Source of the DNA: Dehalococcoidia bacterium
Lineage (GTDB): Bacteria; Chloroflexota; Dehalococcoidia; Bin125
NCBI GenBank assembly: GCA_034421135.1
Contig: DAOUKQ010000029.1
Coordinates: 76,357-140,356 of the forward strand
Direction: 5' to 3'
Length of the DNA stretch: 64,000 nt
Shown: piece after piece, positions 7,138-63,593 of the stretch
Numbering within the stretch: the first letter of the stretch is position 1
Layout of the letters: the number at the start of each line of letters is the position of its first letter
Position numbers and translations under genes: made by a program
Notes under the pieces: generated by a model
Database searches by the model: none
What the model saw: only the letters and a program-made list of their open reading frames with translations
Told to the model about the DNA's origin: nothing

Positions 7138-8241
7138 ATGTCCGACCGCGACAATCGAGCCGTCCGACTCACCGACCTCGCCCGCTGCGGCGGTTGAGGC
7201 TCGAAGTTTGGCCCCGAGGGGCTGGCGCACGTGCTGCGCCATCTTGGACCACAGTTTCCGCCCGAGCAGCATCCCGAGTTGCTCGTCGGCCTCGACCGGC
7301 CCGACGACGCAGCGGTCTACGCGCTCGACGACGAACGCGCGCTTGTGCAGACGCTCGATTTCTTCGCGCCGTTGGTCGACGACCCATACCAGTTCGGCGC
7401 AATCGCGGCCGCCAACGCCATGTCGGATGTCTACGCAATGGGTGGACGCGTCCTCTTCGCGCTCAACATCGCCGCCTTCCCCGACGACCTCCCGCCCGAC
7501 ATAATCGCGGAAGTCCTGCGCGGAGGCGCAGACAAGGTTCGCGAAGCTGGAGCCGTGATCGCCGGCGGACACACGATCATCGACGAAGAGCCCAAGTACG
7601 GTCTCGCGGTCACTGGCGAAGTCGCACGCGAACTGATTCGCACAACCGGCGGCGCACAGCCGGGCGACACGATCATTCTGACCAAGGAAATCGGCACCGG
7701 CGTCCTGATTGGCGCGAACCAGCAGGGCGCGGTGTCAGCGGAGCACTGGGACGGTGCAGTCTCGCAAATGATGTCGCTGAACCGGGATGCGGCCGAAGTC
7801 TCATCCGCTTCCGACCTGGCGCAGGGCGTCCATGCGATCGCAGACGTGACCGGCTTCGGACTCGCTGGACACCTGCATGAGATGTCGGGGCTGAGCGATG
7901 CCGCGATCGAGATTGACCTCGGCGCGGCGCCGGCGCTGGGCGGCCTTTCGGAGGCCGTGGCGGCAGGATTCGGCAGCGGCGGACAGAGTCGCAATCGCGA
8001 GTACTATGGCGCGCGCCTGACGGTCGAGGGCGACCGCGCACTGACCGCCTTCGAGGAAGCGCTGCTCTACGACCCGCAAACTTCCGGAGGCCTGCTGATC
8101 TCTGCGGGCATCATCGAGGCGCCGCATCTGATCCACGAACTTCAGCAACGCGGCGTCCAGGCGACACCCGTCGCTCGCGTGATTGAATCCGCCGCCGGCG
8201 GGCGACTGAGCGTTATTCCCTCGGAGACGCCGCGTGTCTGA
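7138..8241 (+). CDS. selD: Selenide, water dikinase (selenophosphate synthetase), selenocysteine-containing; in-frame UGA at 7195-7197
   Basis: ORF track starts at GTG 7231, but the in-frame upstream reads ATG(7138) MSDRDNRAVRLTDLARCGG-TGA-GSKFGPEGLAHVL, matching the E. coli SelD N-terminus [30 protein letters not shown] with UGA aligned to catalytic Cys17; downstream has AIAAANAMSDVYAMGG and the AIR-synthase-like fold. Confidence 0.8.
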
Positions 8242-9466
8242 TGCGTCCGGCAGTTGGGACGCCGATATCGCCGTCATCGGCGCGGGCATTCTCGGACTCT
8301 CGACTGCGATGGCCCTCGCCACATCGCACGACGACCTGCGTGTCGTCGCGCTGGAGCAGGAATCCGGCGTCGGACGACACCAGAGCGGCAACAACTCGGG
8401 CGTGATTCACTCCGGGCTGTACTACCGGCCCGGCTCAGCCAAGGCGCGCATGGCCGTGGCCGGCGCCGAGCGGATGTACGCCTTCTGCGACGAACACGGC
8501 ATCGGCGCAGAGCGCTGCGGTAAGGTTGTCGTCGCGACCCATGAGTCCGAACTCGAGCGGATGCGCGAGCTGCACCGTCGCGGCGACGCCAACGGCGTGC
8601 CCGACATCCGCGAGCTCGGACCCGACGAACTGCGCGAGTTTGAGCCCAACGCGGCCGGCGTCGCCGCGCTGCACATCCCGTCGACCGGCATCGCCGACTA
8701 CCGAGGCGTCTGCGAGAAGTACCGCGAGCTGCTGCAATCGGCTGGCGGATCGGTGCGGCTGCGGTCCCGCGTCTCGGGCGTTCGCGTCGACGCCGACGGC
8801 GTCCGGCTCTCGACCTCTACGGGAATCGTCCGCGCCAGGTACGTCGTCAACTGCGCCGGACTGCAGGCAGACCGCATCGCTCGGCGGGCGGGCGCGTCCG
8901 AGGCTCGCGACCTGCGCATCGTCCCGTTTCGCGGCGAGTACTACGACCTCGTGCCCTCGGCGCGGCACATGCTCAAGAACCTGATCTATCCCGTGCCCGA
9001 CCCGGCCTTCCCGTTCCTCGGCGTGCATTTCACGCGGCGGCTGGACGGCACCGTCGAGGCGGGCCCCAACGCCGTCCTGGCGCTCAAGCGCGAGGGCTAC
9101 CGCTGGCGCGACATCTCCGCCCGCGACACGGCGGAATCGCTGACCTGGCCCGGCTTCCTCCGGCTGGCCAGGGGCCACTGGCAGACCGGCCTCGGAGAAA
9201 TCTGGCGCAGCGCCAACAAACCCGCCTTCGTCAACGCCCTCCAACGCCTGATGCCCAACCTCGAACCCGATCAACTCACCCGAGGAGGAGCCGGAGTCAG
9301 AGCCCAAGCCCTCCGCCGAGACGGCACCTTAGCCGACGACTTCGAAATCGCCCACCAGGATCGCCTCATCCACATCCTCAACGCCCCCAGCCCCGGCGCC
9401 ACGGCCAGCCTGCTTATCGGAGAAGAAATCGCAGCGACGGCAGAGTCGGCATGGTTGGGGGGATAA
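8234..9466 (+). CDS. lhgO: L-2-hydroxyglutarate oxidase/dehydrogenase (FAD-dependent)
   Basis: 410 aa; N-terminal FAD Rossmann DIAVIGAGILGLSTAMAL; alignable along its length to E. coli LhgO/YgaF (GNNSGVIHSGLYY, RIVPFRGEYY, AGVRAQA, NAPSPGATAS). Confidence 0.8.
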   Translation: MSDASGSWDADIAVIGAGILGLSTAMALATSHDDLRVVALEQESGVGRHQSGNNSGVIHSGLYYRPGSAKARMAVAGAERMYAFCDEHGIGAERCGKVVVATHESELERMRELHRRGDANGVPDIRELGPDELREFEPNAAGVAALHIPSTGIADYRGVCEKYRELLQSAGGSVRLRSRVSGVRVDADGVRLSTSTGIVRARYVVNCAGLQADRIARRAGASEARDLRIVPFRGEYYDLVPSARHMLKNLIYPVPDPAFPFLGVHFTRRLDGTVEAGPNAVLALKREGYRWRDISARDTAESLTWPGFLRLARGHWQTGLGEIWRSANKPAFVNALQRLMPNLEPDQLTRGGAGVRAQALRRDGTLADDFEIAHQDRLIHILNAPSPGATASLLIGEEIAATAESAWLGG

Positions 9467-53769: not shown

Positions 53770-54579
53770 TCAGCGGGATGATTCTTGAAGCCGTTCGATC
53801 CCCTGACGGTGCAGGCCGCTGTTTGCGGTCGCCAGGACTTGCGAACCCGACTCGATAGAAAGCGAACAGCCCGACCAGTCCGTCATTTGCCCGCCTGCGC
53901 CACGCACAATCGGGGCCAACGCAAGATAGTCCCAGCGCTTGAGCGACGCCTCGCAGACAACTTCCAGGAACCCGGAGGCCAACAGGCCGTAGGCATAGCA
54001 ATCGGCGCCGTAGCGAACCCGCTGTAAGGCTCCCGACAGCCGCGACCATGCCGATTGTTCCGCTCCGGAGAACATCTCAGGCGTGGTTGCGAAGCCGACA
54101 GCCTGCGCGAGATCCGACGTTGAAGAGCTGTGGACAACCTGTGAATTGTGTGTAGTTCGTGCCATGACACCGGGATAGTCAACGCCGGACCAGCGGTCCA
54201 TCAATATCGGTTGGTCAAGTACCCCGACCAGCGGTATGCCGTCTCTGAGTAGCCCGATCAGGGTCCCGAACGTCGGCAAACCAGACACAAACGCGCCTGT
54301 ACCGTCGATGGGATCGATCACCCAGACCCACTCCGCATCGACCCGATCGGAGCCGAACTCCTCGCCGATGATGCCGTGCTCGGGATACCGGTCCGCAATG
54401 CGCTCGCGAATCGCCAGCTCGGCTCCGCGGTCGGCGCGTGTCACCGGCGACCCGTCATCCTTCCGATCGATCTGCATCGGGCTGCGGAACCAGGGTCGGA
54501 TCGCATCGCCCGCAGCGTCCGCGAGCTCACCTGCGAACTGCAGGTACATGTCTGCGACTAACTCACGCGGGTCCGGCAT
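53770..54579 (-). CDS. Inositol monophosphatase family protein (SuhB/HisN-like)
   Basis: 269 aa; metal-binding motifs EEFG, WVIDPIDGT, and C-terminal WDxxA region. Confidence 0.8.
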   Translation of the reverse strand: MPDPRELVADMYLQFAGELADAAGDAIRPWFRSPMQIDRKDDGSPVTRADRGAELAIRERIADRYPEHGIIGEEFGSDRVDAEWVWVIDPIDGTGAFVSGLPTFGTLIGLLRDGIPLVGVLDQPILMDRWSGVDYPGVMARTTHNSQVVHSSSTSDLAQAVGFATTPEMFSGAEQSAWSRLSGALQRVRYGADCYAYGLLASGFLEVVCEASLKRWDYLALAPIVRGAGGQMTDWSGCSLSIESGSQVLATANSGLHRQGIERLQESSR

Positions 54580-54766
54580 GTCTCAAGCCTACCGCGCGCG
54601 TCCTCGGCGTCGCGGTTGGCGGGGTATGTAGCCAGCGACAGCGCCAGGCTCAGGCTGCTGATACATTGCAGTACTCGCAGGTGGACGACGCGGTCGCCAA
54701 CGTGCGGGATTCCGATCCACGTCGGCACATCATGCTTGACCGCAACACTCGCGGAAGGATTGACTC

Positions 54767-55867
<1,101 letters not shown>

Positions 55868-55960
55868 CCGACTGATTGCGTCAGCGCTTCTTCTTGACGA
55901 TGTCATTCCCGCACAGGCGGGAAGCCTTCCAGGATCAGCTCCATCAGAGAGTCCCAAGCC

Positions 55961-56827
55961 ATGCACTGGCTCGCGGCCGGATACTGGACGCTGGGCCGAG
56001 CGGCCCGCGCGCTGCCTCGGCCACTCGCATATGCCGCCGCCAGGCGGCTCATGGACGCCGTCTACCTGGGTTGGCCGCGCGGACGCGACGCCGCCGGTCG
56101 AAACGCCGAGTTTCTGCTGCCGCACATTAACTGGAGCGAAGACGCGACCTCGCTCGCACGAGCCCAGTTCCGTCGCTACGGCGAGTACCTGGTCGACGCC
56201 GTCCGCCTGGACGAGCTATCGCCCGCCGACTGCTTCGAGGCGGTCGGCGGCGACGATCTCGCATGGACCGACCACTGGCGACAACTCGAACAGTGGCACG
56301 GACGACGCCCGATCCTCTTCGCAGTCATCCATTTCGGCAACTGGGACATCCTCGGCGGCGCCCACACGTACCGCATCGGCCCATCGATGGTCCTTGTCGA
56401 CGACCTCGGGCATCCCGCGCTCAACCGAGCCATCCAGGATCAACGAGCCAGACTCGGGATGACTCCCGCGAGCGGACGCGGCGGCCTCAGGCAGGTCATC
56501 AATCACCTCGACGCCAACGGCACGGCCGCCATCCTCTTCGATCGCCCCTTTAGACCCGGCGAGCAAACGACAACCGACACGCTCTTCACCCGCCCGCTTC
56601 GGCTTCCAAACGAGATTCACCGCATCGCCGAGCGAACCGGCGCCAAGGTCGTACCCCTCACCTGCACCCGCCTCGGACACATCTTCCGCTTCCGCCCCCA
56701 CATCGACCTCGACTATCACCCTGGCCAAGCACTGCTCCCCGCCTTCGAGCCCGCAATCCGCTCCGCCCCCGATCAGTGGTACCAGTTTCGGCCCCTCTTC
56801 GACCTGCCTGGATCCGATGCTGACTGA
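55961..56827 (+). CDS. Lysophospholipid acyltransferase (LPLAT; HtrB/PatA-like)
   Basis: 288 aa; HFGNWD acyltransferase H(x)4D motif; context with ino1 and a CDP-alcohol phosphatidyltransferase suggests phosphatidylinositol(-mannoside) acylation. Confidence 0.65.
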   Translation: MHWLAAGYWTLGRAARALPRPLAYAAARRLMDAVYLGWPRGRDAAGRNAEFLLPHINWSEDATSLARAQFRRYGEYLVDAVRLDELSPADCFEAVGGDDLAWTDHWRQLEQWHGRRPILFAVIHFGNWDILGGAHTYRIGPSMVLVDDLGHPALNRAIQDQRARLGMTPASGRGGLRQVINHLDANGTAAILFDRPFRPGEQTTTDTLFTRPLRLPNEIHRIAERTGAKVVPLTCTRLGHIFRFRPHIDLDYHPGQALLPAFEPAIRSAPDQWYQFRPLFDLPGSDAD

Positions 56828-56851
56828 CCGATGGCTGTGCTCGCTTCGCGC

Positions 56852-57346
56852 TTAGGCCTCGGAAGGATCGCGTTGATGGACAACTCGCTCTACCCGATCG
56901 AGACGTCGATGCATCGCACTGATGAACGCGAGCCATTCCATGGCCTCGATCTGGCTGACCGGTAGATCATCCTCGTGGGTGTACGGATTCCGTACGGCGA
57001 CAGCCAAGCCAACGGCGAGAAATCGAAACCCATTATGAAGATCTTGTTTGGTCAGAGAGTCCCGGTGCTCGTGAAAGGCCAGAATCGGTCTGTCTTCTGA
57101 GAACACGTGATTCATTAAGGAGCGGTTATTCAAGTCTGGCCGATCGGCCTGCTCTGCGACCCGGTTCTTGAACCGCTCGGCCGCTTTCCGGACGGCCTCT
57201 TGCGGCTCTCCGACCTCGTAGAGGGACCGTGCAAGCTGCACCTCGTGATGCAGTTGGTCGAACGACAGATGCGAATCGTGGCGCGAGTATTCATCCGCCA
57301 TTGGAAACCAGATCTTGTGCAAGCCCCTGCGCTGCTTCAGCGCCAA
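56852..57346 (-). CDS. HEPN domain protein, Ymh/TIGR02391 family (putative RNase toxin / abortive-infection effector)
   Basis: 164 aa; C-terminal R-x4-H motif VAVRNPYTHEDD in an all-helical domain matching the Hypoth_Ymh (HEPN) family from memory; overlaps the upstream partner gene. Confidence 0.5.
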   Translation of the reverse strand: MALKQRRGLHKIWFPMADEYSRHDSHLSFDQLHHEVQLARSLYEVGEPQEAVRKAAERFKNRVAEQADRPDLNNRSLMNHVFSEDRPILAFHEHRDSLTKQDLHNGFRFLAVGLAVAVRNPYTHEDDLPVSQIEAMEWLAFISAMHRRLDRVERVVHQRDPSEA

Positions 57347-57896
57347 TCACCCGCATCCGCACCAGTCGGTTCTGTGAGCCCGGCTTGCCCCGCACCGCGA
57401 TCAAATCGAGTTTGGTCAGAGTGGTCATGAAGTTCGAGTCGAACTTCCCGTATGCCTCCACCGCCTCGCGAATCTGCTTGGTTCCTGTTTCTATCCCAAG
57501 CGCTGTGCGCGAACCGCACACGAGCAGAGCGATCTGTCGAACCGCTTCCGCTTTCGATCCAGCGAGCTTGCTCGACGGAATCGCCAGGGTCGGAGCCTCT
57601 TGTTCTAGGACGAAGAGGTCAGCCGCCAGTTCCGCGTCAATCCCGAAGTAGCGACCAATCGCCTGGGCCCGTGCCTGTGGCGTGGCGTAACCGGTATCAA
57701 GGTCGGTCATGCCTCGCTCGCTAGAGGACTGCAGCGCCCCGTTCGACTCTCCATTCGTGGACGGGGTCCCAGCAAGTTCATGCTCTAGCAGTTTCTCGAA
57801 CGCGATTTCCCGCAGGCGAAACTCATCGCCGCTGAGCGACTTGGTCGCCTCGCGGACGCGCTCGACGATGGCTGAGAGTTGCTCGGTCGTGGACAC
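57291..57896 (-). CDS. Hypothetical protein, upstream partner of the Ymh-HEPN gene (candidate antitoxin/sensor)
   Basis: 201 aa; helical N- and C-terminal parts separated by low-complexity linker; no recognised domain. Confidence 0.35.
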   Translation of the reverse strand: MSTTEQLSAIVERVREATKSLSGDEFRLREIAFEKLLEHELAGTPSTNGESNGALQSSSERGMTDLDTGYATPQARAQAIGRYFGIDAELAADLFVLEQEAPTLAIPSSKLAGSKAEAVRQIALLVCGSRTALGIETGTKQIREAVEAYGKFDSNFMTTLTKLDLIAVRGKPGSQNRLVRMRVIGAEAAQGLAQDLVSNGG

Positions 57897-58002
57897 GCTA
57901 AGTCTCCTTCTTGGCCAGATTATCAGAAGCGAACAGATGTCTCTGTATCTCGCGTCGCGTGCTCGTTCGTCTAGTTTGCCAATCTCATGCGAACATAGCT
58001 GT

Positions 58003-58935
58003 ATGCCAACTGCCCTTGCGATTCGCGCACTGGCCTGCCTCGCCCGCTTCGTGCCCAGGGCGTGGCTCTACATCTTCGCCGAGGCTTCCGCTTCGCTTGC
58101 GATTCCATTCCTTGAGCGCCGTCGACTCCGCATTCGCAACAACCTGCAACGCATCCGACCCGATGACTCGGTCCGCCAACTGAACCGGGCGACCGCCGAG
58201 GTCATCGCCGAGACCGCCCGTTACTACGTCGACCTGGCGATCCTGCCTTCACTGACGCCGCAACAGGTGCTGGACGGCCACCTGCATGTCGCTGGTCTCG
58301 ACCACTTGCTCGATGCGCACCGAGCCGGACGCGGGGTTGTTCTGACCACGGCGCACATCTCCAATCCCGAGGTCGCGGTCAAGGCGCTGGCCGCCCTCGG
58401 CATCCCCGCTGTCGCGCTGGTCGAGCGGCTCGACGATCCGCGACATCTCGAAGCGGTCAACGCCGCTCGCACAGCCGTTGGGATTGAGTTCCTCACGGCT
58501 TCGCAGACCGGCGTAGCGTCCGCGTTGCGGTCCCTGCGAGACGGCGGCGTCGTCTGCATCCTCTGGGACCGAGACCGACAGGGCGGCGGCGCATGCGTAC
58601 CATTCTTCGGTCGCCAGGCGCGATTTCCCGTCGGCGCAATCGACCTCGCCATTCGCGCCGACGCCGATGTCCTGCCGCTCTACGCCGTCCGACGTCCCGG
58701 CCCCGACCGGCTGCAGTTCGATGTCACCTTTCTGCCGCCGCTGGAGCTGTTACTCAAAGGCAACCGAGCGCTCGACACCCGCACCAACATCGCCAACCTC
58801 GCTCGGATCTTCGAGCCGATCATCGCCCAATACGCCCATCTCTGGCGAGTTCCCGAGTCTCCCTGGGCGCCTTGCCGCGACACGCCATGGGACGATCCGC
58901 ATCCCCGCGATCAGCCTGCCAGAGTTGAGACATGA
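58003..58935 (+). CDS. Lysophospholipid acyltransferase (LPLAT; HtrB/PatA-like), second copy
   Basis: 310 aa from MPTALAIRAL; HISNPE H(x)4E/D motif, paralog of 55961..56827; ORF-track upstream 98 codons rejected. Confidence 0.6.
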   Translation: MPTALAIRALACLARFVPRAWLYIFAEASASLAIPFLERRRLRIRNNLQRIRPDDSVRQLNRATAEVIAETARYYVDLAILPSLTPQQVLDGHLHVAGLDHLLDAHRAGRGVVLTTAHISNPEVAVKALAALGIPAVALVERLDDPRHLEAVNAARTAVGIEFLTASQTGVASALRSLRDGGVVCILWDRDRQGGGACVPFFGRQARFPVGAIDLAIRADADVLPLYAVRRPGPDRLQFDVTFLPPLELLLKGNRALDTRTNIANLARIFEPIIAQYAHLWRVPESPWAPCRDTPWDDPHPRDQPARVET

Positions 58936-59684
58936 ATGAACCCAACCAGCCGCCGGGACGGGCCGATCTCCAGATTCACACTGAAGAATCGGACGGCATG
59001 GACGACGCGCTGACCATCCTCGACGCGGCGCACCGGCGAGGCGTCGACGTCATCGCGATCACCGATCACGACCAGACCCGAGGCGCGCACATCGCGCGCG
59101 AGGCGGCGGCCCGGGCCAATCATCCCGTCGAGGTGATCGTCGGCAGCGAGGTCACCAGCCGTCACGGGCACATCCTCGCGCTTTGGATCGAGGAACCGAT
59201 TCCCTTCTTTCGCAGCGCCGCGGCGACGGTCGAAGCGATCTGGAAGCAGGGCGGCATAGCGGTCATCGCCCATCCGGCCGCCGTGTTCCCGCTCGCACTG
59301 AGCATTGGCGACATCGACCGCCTCGTCCGAGACCTCTCTCCCGAACGAAGCGGCGACACGCCGCCGATCCTGGGCATCGAGACGGCGAACCCAATCCCCT
59401 CCGCCCGCTGGCGACGCAACTCCGTCATCCAGTCCAACCAACGCTGGCGCCTCGTCACCACCGGCGGCTCCGACGCGCATTTCCACGAGCAGGTCGGCTC
59501 TGCCGTGACAACCTTCGCCGGCCGAGACCAGTCCGCACTCCGAGCCGCGCTGACTCAGGGGTCGACCGCCGCCGAGTTCAACAGCTATCCCAGTCTGCGC
59601 GACGTAGGCGCAAGCCGGCTCATCCGTCAGCAGTGGCGAGGTCTCACCGCCACACCCAAAGCCCTCCTCCGGCGGCTCCGCTAG
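58932..59684 (+). CDS. PHP-domain metal-dependent phosphoesterase
   Basis: 250 aa; PHP motifs DLQIHTEESDG, ITDHD, IAHP, GGSDAH. Confidence 0.65.
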   Translation: MNEPNQPPGRADLQIHTEESDGMDDALTILDAAHRRGVDVIAITDHDQTRGAHIAREAAARANHPVEVIVGSEVTSRHGHILALWIEEPIPFFRSAAATVEAIWKQGGIAVIAHPAAVFPLALSIGDIDRLVRDLSPERSGDTPPILGIETANPIPSARWRRNSVIQSNQRWRLVTTGGSDAHFHEQVGSAVTTFAGRDQSALRAALTQGSTAAEFNSYPSLRDVGASRLIRQQWRGLTATPKALLRRLR

Positions 59685-59712
59685 GGCTCGTTCGCTTGAC
59701 CCTGTTGTTCCG

Positions 59713-60738
59713 TTGCCTGTCAAGCCGGCCAGGTACGTCCCCCGGCTGGCGCAGCCATCCTGGACCGATATACTGCGTGCATTGGTTCTAAGTTGGAGGT
59801 TGGCCGTGACGAGTCGGCGGGTCGAAGGACAAGCTCGCTTCGCCTCCTTGGCGGATGTTCAGCCTCCGTTTCGCTTCGGCAATCAGGTTCTGTACCTACA
59901 AGACTGTCGAGATTGGCTCCGAACCGCCGCGCGCGACAGCGTGCATGCAGTCGTTACTGACCCTCCATACGGCTTGCACGAGTACCAGCCGGTGCAGGTA
60001 TCGAAACTGCGGAATGGTCGAGGCGGAGTCTGGCGAATTCCCCCTTCCTTCGACGGCGCGCAGCGTCAACCCCTGCCGCGATTCACGGTCAACTCTCCTG
60101 CCGACCGGGCGGAGTTGCGTTCGTTCTTCCGCGAGTGGGCTGAACTGCTGCTGCCTGTGCTGCGACCGGGCGGGCATGTGTTCATCGCGAGCAATCAGCT
60201 CATGTCTCCGCTGGTGGCGTCGGCTCTGGAATCGGCTGGCTTCGAGCGGAGAGGAGAGATCGTGCGGCTCGTGAGGACCCTGCGGGGCGGCGATCGACCG
60301 AAGGGCGCCCACGAAGAGTTCGCCGATGTGAGCACGATGCCGCGATCATGTTGGGAACCGTGGGGCCTGTACCGGCGACCCCTGTCCGAGTCGACGGTCG
60401 CAGGCAATCTCCGGCGTTGGGGTGTGGGAGGACTGCGCAGGGTCTCCGAACAAACTCCATTCCTTGACGTGATCGACAGTGGCAAGACCCCGGCGGCGGA
60501 ACGAGCCATAGCGACACACCTTTCGGCCAAGCCTCAGCGGTTCTTGCGCCAGATCATCAGAGCCTCATTACCCACTGGTGAGGGTGTCGTACTTGATCCC
60601 TTCGCAGGTTGCGCCACCACGCTGGCTGCCGCCGAAGCCGTTGGCGTCCACGGCATCGGAGTTGAGATCGACCCCGACTACTGGGCGCGGGCGTGTGAAG
60701 CGATCGCCCCGCTCTCCGAGCTCCGGGTCGACCAATGA
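59713..60738 (+). CDS. DNA methyltransferase, beta-class N4-cytosine/N6-adenine (N6_N4_Mtase: motif IV before motif I), putative R-M modification subunit
   Basis: 341 aa (true start may be the internal GTG near 59806); motif IV VVTDPPYG then motif I VLDPFAGCATTLAAAEAVG near the C-terminus; ATGA overlap with the downstream gene. Confidence 0.65.
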   Translation: MPVKPARYVPRLAQPSWTDILRALVLSWRLAVTSRRVEGQARFASLADVQPPFRFGNQVLYLQDCRDWLRTAARDSVHAVVTDPPYGLHEYQPVQVSKLRNGRGGVWRIPPSFDGAQRQPLPRFTVNSPADRAELRSFFREWAELLLPVLRPGGHVFIASNQLMSPLVASALESAGFERRGEIVRLVRTLRGGDRPKGAHEEFADVSTMPRSCWEPWGLYRRPLSESTVAGNLRRWGVGGLRRVSEQTPFLDVIDSGKTPAAERAIATHLSAKPQRFLRQIIRASLPTGEGVVLDPFAGCATTLAAAEAVGVHGIGVEIDPDYWARACEAIAPLSELRVDQ

Positions 60739-61640
60739 CCAACGCGGAGTTCCGGTTCCTGCAGCCCATCGTTCCGGACCCTGCAGGACTAATCGATCCG
60801 ACCTCATTGCCCGAGCCTCTGCCCTACGGTCTGGCCCCAAGGCACATTCTCAGGACGGTGGAAGACGTACAAGATCTGATTCACCAACTGAACAGCGTGC
60901 TGCAGCAGTCATCCCACGAGCCCCTGGAGGACCTGCTGGACCGGGCGGCGTTCTCAGGGTTGATCAGCCGGACAGTCGCCGCTCGTCTGGCCGAGTCGCG
61001 ACCTGGGAGCCTCGTTGTCAACCGCTATCACAACGGTTATCCAGATCTGATCCCGAAGGGGCAATACCCAGGCGACGCCATTCAACGAGGCATCGGGCTG
61101 GAGGTCAAGGCCAGTCGCAGCGAGGGTAGCTGGCAGTCACATGGTCCGAGACCAGGCTGGTTCGTCGTGGTCCAGTTCGCAATCGACGAGTCGGAGGCAG
61201 TGGCTCGTCTTCAACGACTACCGACTGTTGTTCAAGCAGTGATGATGGCGAGGTTGACCGAAGCAGACTGGTCCTGGACGCCCGCGCGGGCCAATCGAAT
61301 CCGCAGCGGCACGGCCTCGGTCAAACCAAGCGGCAAGCTGAAACTGCGAAGAGGCGCGGTCTGGGTCGCACCTTCGTTTCGGGAGCGACATGACTATCTG
61401 CGGCAATCCCTCGTCGCCTCCGAGTTCAGACGAGATCTGTCACCGAGAGTGCTGGAACTGCTCGACACCGCTAATGAGGTACTCAACGCAGCATTGATCC
61501 GCGACCAGATTGAACTGCCCAGCGAACTGGACGAAGCCAAGGCTCTGGCAGCAGTCAAGTCGGTGCTCGCGAAGCTGCGACAGGAAGGCCGCGTCGAGTC
61601 CTCCGGCAACAGAGGCTTCTATCGCAGGTCGCGGAGCTGA
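60735..61640 (+). CDS. Putative Type II restriction endonuclease (PD-(D/E)xK fold), no recognisable family
   Basis: 301 aa; candidate core GYPDLIPKGQYPGDAIQRGIGLEVKAS (PD...ExK); translationally coupled (ATGA) to the MTase. Confidence 0.45.
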   Translation: MTNAEFRFLQPIVPDPAGLIDPTSLPEPLPYGLAPRHILRTVEDVQDLIHQLNSVLQQSSHEPLEDLLDRAAFSGLISRTVAARLAESRPGSLVVNRYHNGYPDLIPKGQYPGDAIQRGIGLEVKASRSEGSWQSHGPRPGWFVVVQFAIDESEAVARLQRLPTVVQAVMMARLTEADWSWTPARANRIRSGTASVKPSGKLKLRRGAVWVAPSFRERHDYLRQSLVASEFRRDLSPRVLELLDTANEVLNAALIRDQIELPSELDEAKALAAVKSVLAKLRQEGRVESSGNRGFYRRSRS

Positions 61641-61664
61641 CGAAAGGCGCGCCGGCCAACCCTC

Positions 61665-62696
61665 ATGCGCATTGCCCACTTGCTTCCTTACGACCTCCGG
61701 CAGCCGGGTGGGGTTCAGACGCACACGCTGGCGTTGTCCGAGGGGTTGCGACGGTTGGGGCACGAGTCGGTGGTGTTTGGGCCTGAACGGGCGTTTCGGG
61801 TCTCGCTCGGCGGGACTCGGGCTGATTTGGCGTTCCACCCTGGCGACCTGCTGAAGCTTCGGGAGTTTCTGCGCCGACCTCACGACATCCTCCACATCCA
61901 GGAACCGATGCTGCCGATGCTTGGGCCACTGGGGCTGTTGCATCCGGGCGGTGCGCCGGTGGTGGTCACGTTGCACTCCGCCGAGGCGCTCGCGGGGCGG
62001 TTCTACCGCTCGACGGCTACGCTGACCCGATTCTTGCTTCGCCGCGCCGACGCCATCATCTGCGCCACTGCGGTATCGCGAGACGTCGCGGCGGCCTCCT
62101 TGCCGCGCGCCCCCGAGCTGATCCCTCCATGCCTCGACCTGTCGGCGTTTCGCGCAGTAAGCGAGCAGCGGGAGCCGGGGTTGGTGTTGTTCGTCGGACG
62201 CGACGAACCGCGTAAGGGACTCTCGGTGATCGTGAGCGCGATGAAGCGCCTTCCACACGCTCGCCTGGTCGTCGCAGGTCCGGTGCGGGAATCAACCCGG
62301 CGCAGTGCCGGGGCGCAGACCACCTTTCTCGGAGCCGTACCTCATGAGCAGATTCCCCAACTGTTGGCGACAGCGTCGTGCGCAGTCTTCCCCGCTACCG
62401 GCGGCGAGGCGCTCGGCCTGGTGCTGATCGAGGCGATGGCCTCGGGATTGCCGGTGATCGCATCCGACATTCCCGGCTACCGGATCGCTTCCGACGACGG
62501 CCGATCCGCCGTGCTCACGCCTGCCAACGACCCGGCCGCGTTGGCGCAGCATATTGAAGCGCTTCTCAACAATGATCCAAGACGAGCCGAGCTTGCGGCA
62601 CTCGGCCGCTGCAATGCCCGACGATTCGATGCCGATACGGTCGCGCAGCAGCACCTGGACCTGTATCACTCCCTCGTTCAGCCCTACTCTGGGTGA
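61665..62696 (+). CDS. Glycosyltransferase family 4 (PimA/PimB-like mannosyltransferase candidate)
   Basis: 343 aa; GT-B fold, N-terminal MRIAHLLPYDLRQPGGVQTH, C-terminal EALGLVLIEAMASGLPVIASD (E-x7-E region). Confidence 0.65.
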   Translation: MRIAHLLPYDLRQPGGVQTHTLALSEGLRRLGHESVVFGPERAFRVSLGGTRADLAFHPGDLLKLREFLRRPHDILHIQEPMLPMLGPLGLLHPGGAPVVVTLHSAEALAGRFYRSTATLTRFLLRRADAIICATAVSRDVAAASLPRAPELIPPCLDLSAFRAVSEQREPGLVLFVGRDEPRKGLSVIVSAMKRLPHARLVVAGPVRESTRRSAGAQTTFLGAVPHEQIPQLLATASCAVFPATGGEALGLVLIEAMASGLPVIASDIPGYRIASDDGRSAVLTPANDPAALAQHIEALLNNDPRRAELAALGRCNARRFDADTVAQQHLDLYHSLVQPYSG

Positions 62697-63593
62697 GTGA
62701 AGCTTCTCCGCTGCTCCGTCGTATTGGCTGCTATCGCAGTGCTGGGACTGTTTGTCGTCCTCACACCAAGTCTGTCCGCTCAAGCGCCGTCGCATGAATG
62801 GGTCGCGGCCGAGACCAACGACCTGACCCTCTGGCACACGCAGGGGGAGATTCGGGCGGAGGACCTCGCCAATCATGGACAAGGCGCGTACGACCTCGTC
62901 AGCGACCTGATCGACACCTCGATTGACCAGCGCCTCGCATTGATCGTCTGGCCGCAGGGCGGCGATCCGTCCGACGCTTCCGCCTGGCCCGAGGGCATCG
63001 AGGACGATTGGCTGGTCCTGCATGTCATGCGCAACGCATCGGGCGACGTGCGCAACGCGGTCACCAATGCGCTGATCAGCGCAGCCGCAGCGCCTCACGC
63101 CGATCAGGTGCCGCTCTGGATGCGTTCGGCGATGGGCTTCTGGTCGCAGGGCCCACTGCCCGGCTTCTACCTCAGGCGCGCCGGATCGGTGATTCTCTTC
63201 GACCATGAGGATTACTACAGCTTCGAGCAGCTTGAGACGACTCCAACCACCTGGCAGTTCCAGGCCAAGTACTTCGGACAGGCCGGCGGCATGTTGGCCT
63301 GGATGATTCAGGACTGGGGCACCGAAGCGCTGGCCGAACTGTTCCGCCTGACGGGATCAGGCGTGCCCTTCTACGACGCCCTGGAGCAGGTGTACGGCAT
63401 TCCGCAGGAGAAGTTCATCGACGAGTTCACCGGCAACGCCGAGCGTGCGCTGCTGCTGCTCTGGCCCTACATCGAGCCGCAGGATCGGCCGTTCTACGAG
63501 ACGCTGAACCTCAACCACGTGATCATGATCGCCGCCGCCATTCCCCTGGCCATCCTGTTCTTCTTTATCGGTAAACGGCTGTTTTACGACTGA
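62697..63593 (+). CDS. Secreted/membrane-anchored hypothetical protein
   Basis: 298 aa; signal peptide, C-terminal TM helix IMIAAAIPLAILFFFIG. Confidence 0.4.
   Translation: MKLLRCSVVLAAIAVLGLFVVLTPSLSAQAPSHEWVAAETNDLTLWHTQGEIRAEDLANHGQGAYDLVSDLIDTSIDQRLALIVWPQGGDPSDASAWPEGIEDDWLVLHVMRNASGDVRNAVTNALISAAAAPHADQVPLWMRSAMGFWSQGPLPGFYLRRAGSVILFDHEDYYSFEQLETTPTTWQFQAKYFGQAGGMLAWMIQDWGTEALAELFRLTGSGVPFYDALEQVYGIPQEKFIDEFTGNAERALLLLWPYIEPQDRPFYETLNLNHVIMIAAAIPLAILFFFIGKRLFYD

Follow-up and report, generated by a model that had tools for sequence, protein, structure and literature searches.

INTRODUCTION

Classical Type II restriction-modification (R-M) systems of the EcoRV/SfiI/BglI branch, which encode a DNA methyltransferase (MTase) and a restriction endonuclease (REase) in separate genes, are the described systems closest to the locus analyzed here. 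This locus is a pair of overlapping genes in a 64-kb stretch of DNA (the window) from contig DAOUKQ010000029.1, which belongs to a Dehalococcoidia (Chloroflexota) lineage known from metagenome-assembled genomes (MAGs). The pair had previously been singled out, from the sequence alone, as a candidate novel Type II R-M system inserted in an inositol-lipid locus. Like the systems of the EcoRV/SfiI/BglI branch, it combines separate genes with a beta-class amino-MTase and places a PD...(D/E)xK motif on strands beta2 and beta3; unlike them, its putative nuclease, termed ORF2, has no detectable sequence homology to solved REases, resembles their structures remotely, and possesses an extra C-terminal winged helix. 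The pair very probably constitutes a genuine Type II R-M cassette of ~1.9 kb (~59767 to 61640) that was acquired horizontally at the junction between a PHP-domain gene and a family-4 glycosyltransferase (GT4) gene. It can be called novel with reservations only: R-M systems of this type are classical, and the family of the nuclease, though uncharacterized and unnamed in curated libraries, is widespread.

In overall architecture ORF2 is also similar to NaeI (Type IIE) and DpnI (Type IIM), both of which join, in a single chain of ~250 to 320 amino acids (aa), a PD-(D/E)xK catalytic domain to a DNA-binding domain of the winged-helix or CAP-like type. NaeI is paired with a C5 MTase, whereas DpnI is methyl-dependent and, to our knowledge, has no cognate MTase.

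RESULTS AND DISCUSSION

A beta-class DNA methyltransferase overlaps the ORF2 gene

Both open reading frames (ORFs) were confirmed on the plus strand (59713 to 60738 and 60735 to 61640). They overlap at an ATGA sequence, in which the ATG of ORF2 (60735 to 60737) is interlaced with the TGA stop codon of the MTase gene (60736 to 60738), suggesting translational coupling of ORF2 to the MTase. The original prediction of a beta-class MTase coupled in this way to a 301-aa protein was thus correct as to the ORFs, the overlap, and the order of the motifs, but the MTase start had to be revised. The TTG at 59713, from which the gene had been counted, is merely the first TTG in the open frame, and the functional start is almost certainly the GTG at 59806, as judged from a GGAGG sequence six nucleotides (nt) upstream and from the same start in the gene-caller annotation and in homologues. 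The resulting MTase has 310 aa.

The MTase matched PF01555 (N6_N4_Mtase) with 66.4 bits, compared with a gathering cutoff of 26.7 (E = 4.7e-18), and the PADLOC Type II MTase profile PDLC03215 over its full length (2.1e-104). Its sequence relatives in the PDB were all DNA amino-MTases, namely, 8urk, CcrM, MboIIA, DpnA, and N4-cytosine MTases. Motif IV (T-D-P-P-Y-G) is located N-terminal to motif I (D-P-F-A-G-C-A-T-T), which is the beta-class order. Of the DPPY...FxGxG pattern initially reported, DPPY is present, whereas the last G of FxGxG is replaced by A, resulting in FAGCA. Other family members have FAGSG, and the FAGCA variant is common to the Dehalococcoidia copies and to locus L049, which belongs to another lineage. 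No meaningful match to rRNA or tRNA MTase families was obtained in the Pfam, NCBIfam, PADLOC, and PDB searches, and the only match outside families named as DNA MTases, TIGR01177, was far below its cutoff (21 bits versus 316). The MTase is probably N6-adenine-specific, a target that established motif usage favors for DPPY rather than SPPY.

ORF2 belongs to a widespread family with invariant PD...ExK residues

No family in Pfam or NCBIfam matched ORF2. The initial statement that the protein has no recognizable family holds for these two libraries; it does not hold more broadly, since 39 of 49 family members weakly matched the PADLOC REase_II profile PDLC03564 and the family itself could be delineated. 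A word-indexed search retrieved 151 homologues, nearly all labeled "hypothetical", and a HMMER profile search against 1.84 billion representatives yielded 452 clusters at E <= 1e-3, the majority of which are 200 to 230 aa long and span only profile positions ~25 to 210. On the basis of these searches, the family is widespread, uncharacterized, and absent from Pfam and NCBIfam. The phage collection contained no relatives. In the 49-member alignment, with identities down to 42%, residues P103, D104, E123, and K125 are invariant and form part of the strings G-Y-P-D-L-I-P and G-L-E-V-K-A-S; further invariant residues are D69, H136, R139, W142, D178, and W179.

Two known families were considered for ORF2. 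While the MTase is a full-length member of its PADLOC profile, ORF2 aligned partially and weakly with PDLC03564 (residues 43 to 108 on profile positions 23 to 98 of 267) and is a distant relative at best. Membership in the CfrBI family was discarded, as there was no PF09516 match and the hhalign probability against the CfrBI-type REase of locus L019 was 0.2%.

An AlphaFold2 model of ORF2, based on the homologue alignment, had a pLDDT of 95.5 and a pTM of 0.91. In this model the PD residues directly precede the strand 105 to 107 and ExK lies within the strand 122 to 127, which correspond to the canonical beta2/beta3 positions of PD-(D/E)xK nucleases. The PD...(D/E)xK signature noted originally is thus corroborated by its invariance in the 49 homologues and by a high-confidence model of the nuclease domain. 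Residues 1 to 215, modeled alone, had a pLDDT of 94.7, and the top 19 PDB neighbors of this segment in a Foldseek search were all Type II REases (EcoRV, SfiI, and BglI), although these neighbors are remote. Comparison of the ORF2 sequence and the 49-sequence profile with all PDB chains gave chance-level winged-helix matches only.

When the whole chain was submitted to Foldseek, the last ~70 residues were recognized as a winged helix, matching Z-alpha, LmrR, and IclR-type domains with a probability of 1.0; this region also has weak Pfam matches to AbiEi_4, PaaX, and linker histone. None of the top 50 structural matches was NaeI, EcoRII, or DpnI. The existence of core-only relatives indicates that the winged helix is dispensable for the basic fold, and the model suggests that it may be an accessory DNA-binding module restricted to the ~300-aa subfamily.

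Nuclease and methyltransferase are linked across phyla

In all seven genomic contexts that were looked up, which include Mycobacterium avium, Nocardioides, a Pantoea-labeled MAG, and Gaiellaceae, a PF01555 MTase adjoins the ORF2 relative; the two genes are arranged either in tandem or convergently. We also analyzed 29 metagenome loci, 25 of which had a solid ORF2 match and enough flanking sequence to be informative. An MTase of the same subfamily was found in 24 of these, either adjoining the ORF2 homologue or, in L071, at a distance of 3.3 kb. One metagenome locus was divergent, resulting in three gene orders overall (tandem, convergent, and divergent). The exception was L084 (10001 to 10660), which contains an ORF2 relative with 44% identity that covers only residues 74 to 293 and has no MTase of the same family within 10 kb; this relative may be a truncated remnant. 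The linked MTases form one subfamily with 57 to 69% mutual identity, whereas the linked nucleases are less conserved (44 to 57%). The MTase search returned at least 8000 matches compared with 151 for ORF2, indicating that many such MTases occur without an ORF2-type partner.

The linkage extends over ~30 independent contexts, comprising chromosomes, integrative elements, small ColE1-type plasmids, and M. avium plasmids. The 4.9-kb ColE1/Col440I-type plasmids of Klebsiella, Citrobacter, Raoultella, and Pseudomonas carry the pair as essentially their sole cargo besides mobilization genes. Their 201-aa nuclease homologue consists of the core only, without the winged helix, and is 35% identical to the ORF2 core (E = 3e-29), with PD...ExK retained; the convergent 372-aa MTase is 52% identical to that of the window and belongs to the same subfamily. 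The plasmid pair thus shares a homologous nuclease core and the MTase subfamily with the window pair but differs in its gene order, in an N-terminal extension of the MTase, and in being unannotated. Both the Klebsiella and the M. avium relatives have MTases that are likewise full-length, strong members of PDLC03215. This plasmid and chromosomal spread characterizes the nuclease core and its MTase as a widely mobile module.

Actinobacterial versions contain an additional gene of 65 to 74 aa with winged-helix-like features, translationally coupled upstream of the MTase, that is not present in the window cassette; in the 121 nt upstream of the window MTase there is no small ORF for a C-protein-type controller. 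This small gene was located at L004 4795 to 4992, L006 7774 to 7989 (minus strand), and L051 5818 to 6042 (minus strand). It is 49 to 60% identical between phyla and has weak winged-helix matches to DUF7669 and HARE-HTH. Its product is a candidate controller outside the classic HTH_3 C-protein type. One contig carries an HTH_3 gene.

Different cassettes occupy the same junction in sister genomes

In the window the gene order is ino1, two Lip_A acyltransferase genes, the PHP gene, the R-M pair, and the GT4 gene, as previously described. An inositol monophosphatase gene is located upstream on the minus strand (its L053 homologue is PF00459), and a CDP-alcohol phosphatidyltransferase gene follows just beyond the window. 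We mapped the window genes onto 34 Dehalococcoidia loci. The PHP-GT4 junction was empty in 12 sister loci, with the two genes 30 to 55 bp apart, and 10 others contained an unrelated 2.2-kb insert at the same position. In the two examined (L019 and L033), this insert consists of an SPPY-type PF01555 MTase gene followed by a gene for a CfrBI-family REase (PF09516; PADLOC REase_II, 1e-56 to 1e-67). The site, the MTase-then-REase order, and the size of ~2.2 kb make it in effect an allelic alternative to the window cassette. Its nuclease is nevertheless unrelated, and the two MTases share generic motifs only, with SPPY in the CfrBI-type MTase and DPPY in that of the window.

L024, L037, L053, and L054 also carry a window-type pair at the PHP-GT4 junction, and L055 carries one at another chromosomal site. 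Two loci showed decay. In L028 a 1.7-kb insert interrupts the nuclease gene, from which residues 33 to 94, including PD, have been lost, whereas the MTase is intact; in L039 the MTase alone is retained at the junction. Loss of the nuclease with retention of the MTase is the decay pattern expected of a toxic nuclease.

The empty sites and the alternative cassettes at the same junction directly show the horizontal insertion that had been proposed. The PHP-GT4 junction is a recombination-prone hotspot of R-M exchange inside a lipid operon. Flanking direct and inverted repeats were of chance length only, and no mobility genes were found at the cassette; by default, cassettes would be replaced by homologous recombination through the conserved flanks.

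Some further features of these sister loci were recorded. The 1.7-kb disruptor in L028 (9740 to 11460) contains a 196-aa minus-strand ORF with an HExxH metalloprotease-like motif (LLAHEYFH), and no transposase was recognized in it. Ahead of the CfrBI-type cassette there is a HEAT-repeat ORF (PF13646; PADLOC HEAT_CxxC_PD-DExK, 2e-9) at L019 8784 to 9203 and L033 8638 to 10017; in L033 this ORF is in one reading frame with the MTase. In L054 a GPP34 (PF05719) gene (8231 to 8869, minus strand) lies beside the R-M pair in the junction; GPP34 has been named as sponge-symbiosis-associated (PMC11706023).

Search for a recognition sequence by motif avoidance

The hexamer GTGCAC does not occur in the 64-kb window, compared with 12.3 expected occurrences. 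In a differential test against cassette-free relatives, it ranked second among 2006 six-mers and was the top palindrome (P = 1.8e-5). This depletion was partially replicated in three further cassette-bearing Dehalococcoidia loci (3 occurrences versus 10.8 expected, P = 0.006). CAGCTG was likewise rare (1 occurrence in the window versus 16.7 expected); its depletion is lineage-wide, with or without the cassette, and the fact that cassette-free sisters share the depletion suggests that another, lineage-wide R-M pressure acts on this PvuII-type site. As a positive control, CCWWGG was analyzed in the loci with the CfrBI cassette and was not depleted, indicating that the sensitivity of palindrome avoidance is low here. 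The literature on GTGCAC amino-MTases, M. avium methylome motifs, and MTases of Klebsiella Col440I plasmids provided nothing usable.

Two nearby genes of potential defense function could act as confounders in such avoidance analyses. The first, at L001 12300 to 12906, ~6.3 kb downstream of ORF2 and just outside the window, encodes a 914-aa protein with a faint N6_Mtase match, possibly a Type IIG or Type I-like enzyme. The second, at L053 16819 to 18648, encodes a GmrSD Type IV nuclease.

Interpretation and alternative readings

Several observations weigh against a Type II R-M cassette acquired at this site. The REase structural matches are remote (best E = 8e-3, probability 0.93, TM 0.33 to 0.45), and the PADLOC REase match of ORF2 spans just 66 residues at 27 bits. 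A generic sigma-70 scan detected neither a full promoter nor a terminator at the cassette. GTGCAC is not depleted in L054, in the M. avium loci, or in 29 pooled diverse cassette-bearing contigs, and palindrome avoidance assigned no recognition sequence to the pair; GTGCAC is a weak lead that may stem from another system in the lineage. Finally, the deviation in composition that had been suggested as a check is mild and not decisive alone (GC z of -0.6 and -1.7, GC3 z of -1.0, and codon z of -1.4), but the presence and absence of cassettes in sister genomes is much stronger evidence for insertion than this signal.

The alternative that survives best, although we consider it unlikely, also assumes an R-M system, but one resembling the Type IIE or IIF enzymes NaeI and EcoRII. 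Here, the winged helix would bind a second, effector DNA site, and cleavage would require two copies of the sequence; in a variant, the winged helix would autoregulate the operon via the leader. This agrees with the confidently predicted combination of nuclease and winged helix and with the core-only relatives, which show that the latter is not needed for the basic fold. The window cassette has no small 65- to 74-aa gene, so that the fused winged helix could substitute for it; however, the M. avium, Nocardioides, and Gaiellaceae versions carry both, and neither NaeI nor EcoRII appeared among the leading structural matches.

Considerably less probable is that this genome carries a decaying remnant of the cassette whose nuclease or MTase is inactive. 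The decay in L028 and L039 and the noncanonical motif I would be in line with this idea, but neither ORF is truncated, every invariant residue is retained, FAGCA is common to several intact members, including L049, and two independent assemblies gave an identical contig.

It is still less probable, and in our view improbable, that the MTase is functionally solitary and that ORF2 is not a restriction nuclease but an accompanying DNA-binding regulator or another PD-(D/E)xK protein, for example in repair or recombination. No curated family names ORF2, its structural matches are below significance, and the MTase family is far larger than that of ORF2. These points are opposed by the invariant catalytic triad, by structural neighbors of the nuclease core that are REases only, and by the strict association with a single MTase subfamily, whatever the phylum or the gene order. 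Small plasmids that carry essentially mobilization genes and the pair, and the selective loss of ORF2 while the MTase is kept, a signature of a toxic partner, also oppose them. A modification-dependent nuclease (Type IIM/IV) directed against foreign methylation, with an MTase unrelated to its specificity, is very improbable despite the DpnI-like domain architecture, because coupling to and obligate co-inheritance with one MTase subfamily would be self-destructive or pointless and DpnI is missing from the structural matches.

For the Type II R-M cassette, we infer the following mode of action. The MTase would modify the host copies of one specific short sequence, likely to N6-methyladenine (m6A), and thereby protect them. 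Owing to the ATGA coupling, ORF2 would be synthesized after, and in proportion to, the MTase. As a predicted Mg2+-dependent PD-(D/E)xK endonuclease with D104, E123, and K125, and perhaps E65 or D69, as catalytic residues, ORF2 would then cut incoming DNA that is unmethylated at the sequence recognized by the MTase. The winged helix might provide extra DNA contacts, a Type IIE-like effector site, or regulation of expression.

More tentatively, and with somewhat less than even confidence, we propose that ORF2 is the founding member of an uncharacterized Type II REase family of ~450 clusters, that it represents a winged-helix-fused subfamily whose specificity is new or whose mechanism is two-site or regulatory, and that the PHP-GT4 junction is a mobility-gene-free hotspot of mutually replacing, unrelated R-M cassettes. 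If confirmed, a nuclease family now labeled "hypothetical" by annotation pipelines would receive a name and a function, and a new restriction specificity might follow. Small mobilizable plasmids from clinical Klebsiella, Citrobacter, and Pseudomonas also carry members of this family, as do M. avium plasmids and integrative elements. The locus illustrates cleanly how, in nature, R-M cassettes turn over at one intergenic position of an operon without integrase or repeats; in sister genomes the junction is found empty, with a CfrBI-type cassette, with a window-type pair, or with a decayed pair. The general picture of R-M biology is unchanged.

Organization of the cassette and its leader

The features of the cassette and its borders are compiled in Table 1. 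According to the flank alignment, the conserved cassette begins ~40 nt ahead of the MTase start codon and extends as far as the ORF2 stop codon. The leader is kept in L024, L028, L037, L053, L054, and L039, with TATACT, TATGCT, or TATAAT plus GGAG, and is a putative promoter and 5' untranslated region of the cassette's own. As there is no terminator in the right junction, transcription probably continues from the cassette into GT4.

TABLE 1 Features of the R-M cassette and the flanking host genes (window coordinates)
Feature	Position	Strand	Basis or remark
Host PHP-domain gene, left border of integration site	58932..59684	+	Library match and synteny
Left junction spacer, PHP stop codon to cassette leader	59685..59766	+	Not conserved across cassette-carrying loci (flank alignment)
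Cassette leader, conserved	59767..59805	+	-10-like TATACT 59769-59774; GGAGG ribosome-binding site 59795-59799, six nt before GTG
Beta-class amino DNA MTase gene, 310 aa, GTG start	59806..60738	+	PF01555, PDLC03215, PDB DNA MTases
MTase catalytic motif IV, D-P-P-Y, residues 52-55	59959..59970	+	Conserved in six family MTases
MTase S-adenosylmethionine-binding motif I, F-A-G-C-A, residues 266-270	60601..60615	+	FxGxG variant
Putative REase gene (ORF2), 301 aa, ATG overlapping MTase stop	60735..61640	+	Family and linkage evidence
Nuclease domain, ~residues 1-212, N-terminal helices and mixed sheet, PD-(D/E)xK-type core	60735..61370	+	AlphaFold, Foldseek, core-only homologues
P103-D104, predicted catalytic, just before beta strand 105-107	61041..61046	+	Invariant in 49 homologues; model strands
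E123-V-K125, predicted catalytic, within beta strand 122-127	61101..61109	+	E123 and K125 invariant; model strands
C-terminal winged-helix domain, ~residues 230-300	61420..61637	+	Foldseek; weak Pfam matches
Right junction, 24 nt, ORF2 stop to GT4 start codon	61641..61664	+	No terminator
Host GT4 gene, right border of integration site	61665..62696	+	Library match and synteny

The host operon and a second variable insert

The host operon (window 53770 to 63593 and beyond) is conserved across all 34 Dehalococcoidia loci. With its two PatA-like Lip_A genes and its PimA-like GT4 gene, it resembles the actinobacterial phosphatidylinositol-mannoside pathway, in which the role of the missing PIP phosphatase could fall to the PHP protein. 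A second variable insert is located between the two Lip_A genes (56852 to 57896, minus strand) and has the lowest GC content here (0.57, z = -3.6). It encodes a 164-aa Hypoth_Ymh/TIGR02391 HEPN-like protein (PADLOC PD-Lambda-3_B, 4e-11; Aga_HEPN) whose gene overlaps that of a family-less 201-aa protein. About half of the sister genomes have this two-gene module and the others lack it; in L055 it is located elsewhere. It is probably an uncharacterized defense or abortive-infection module.

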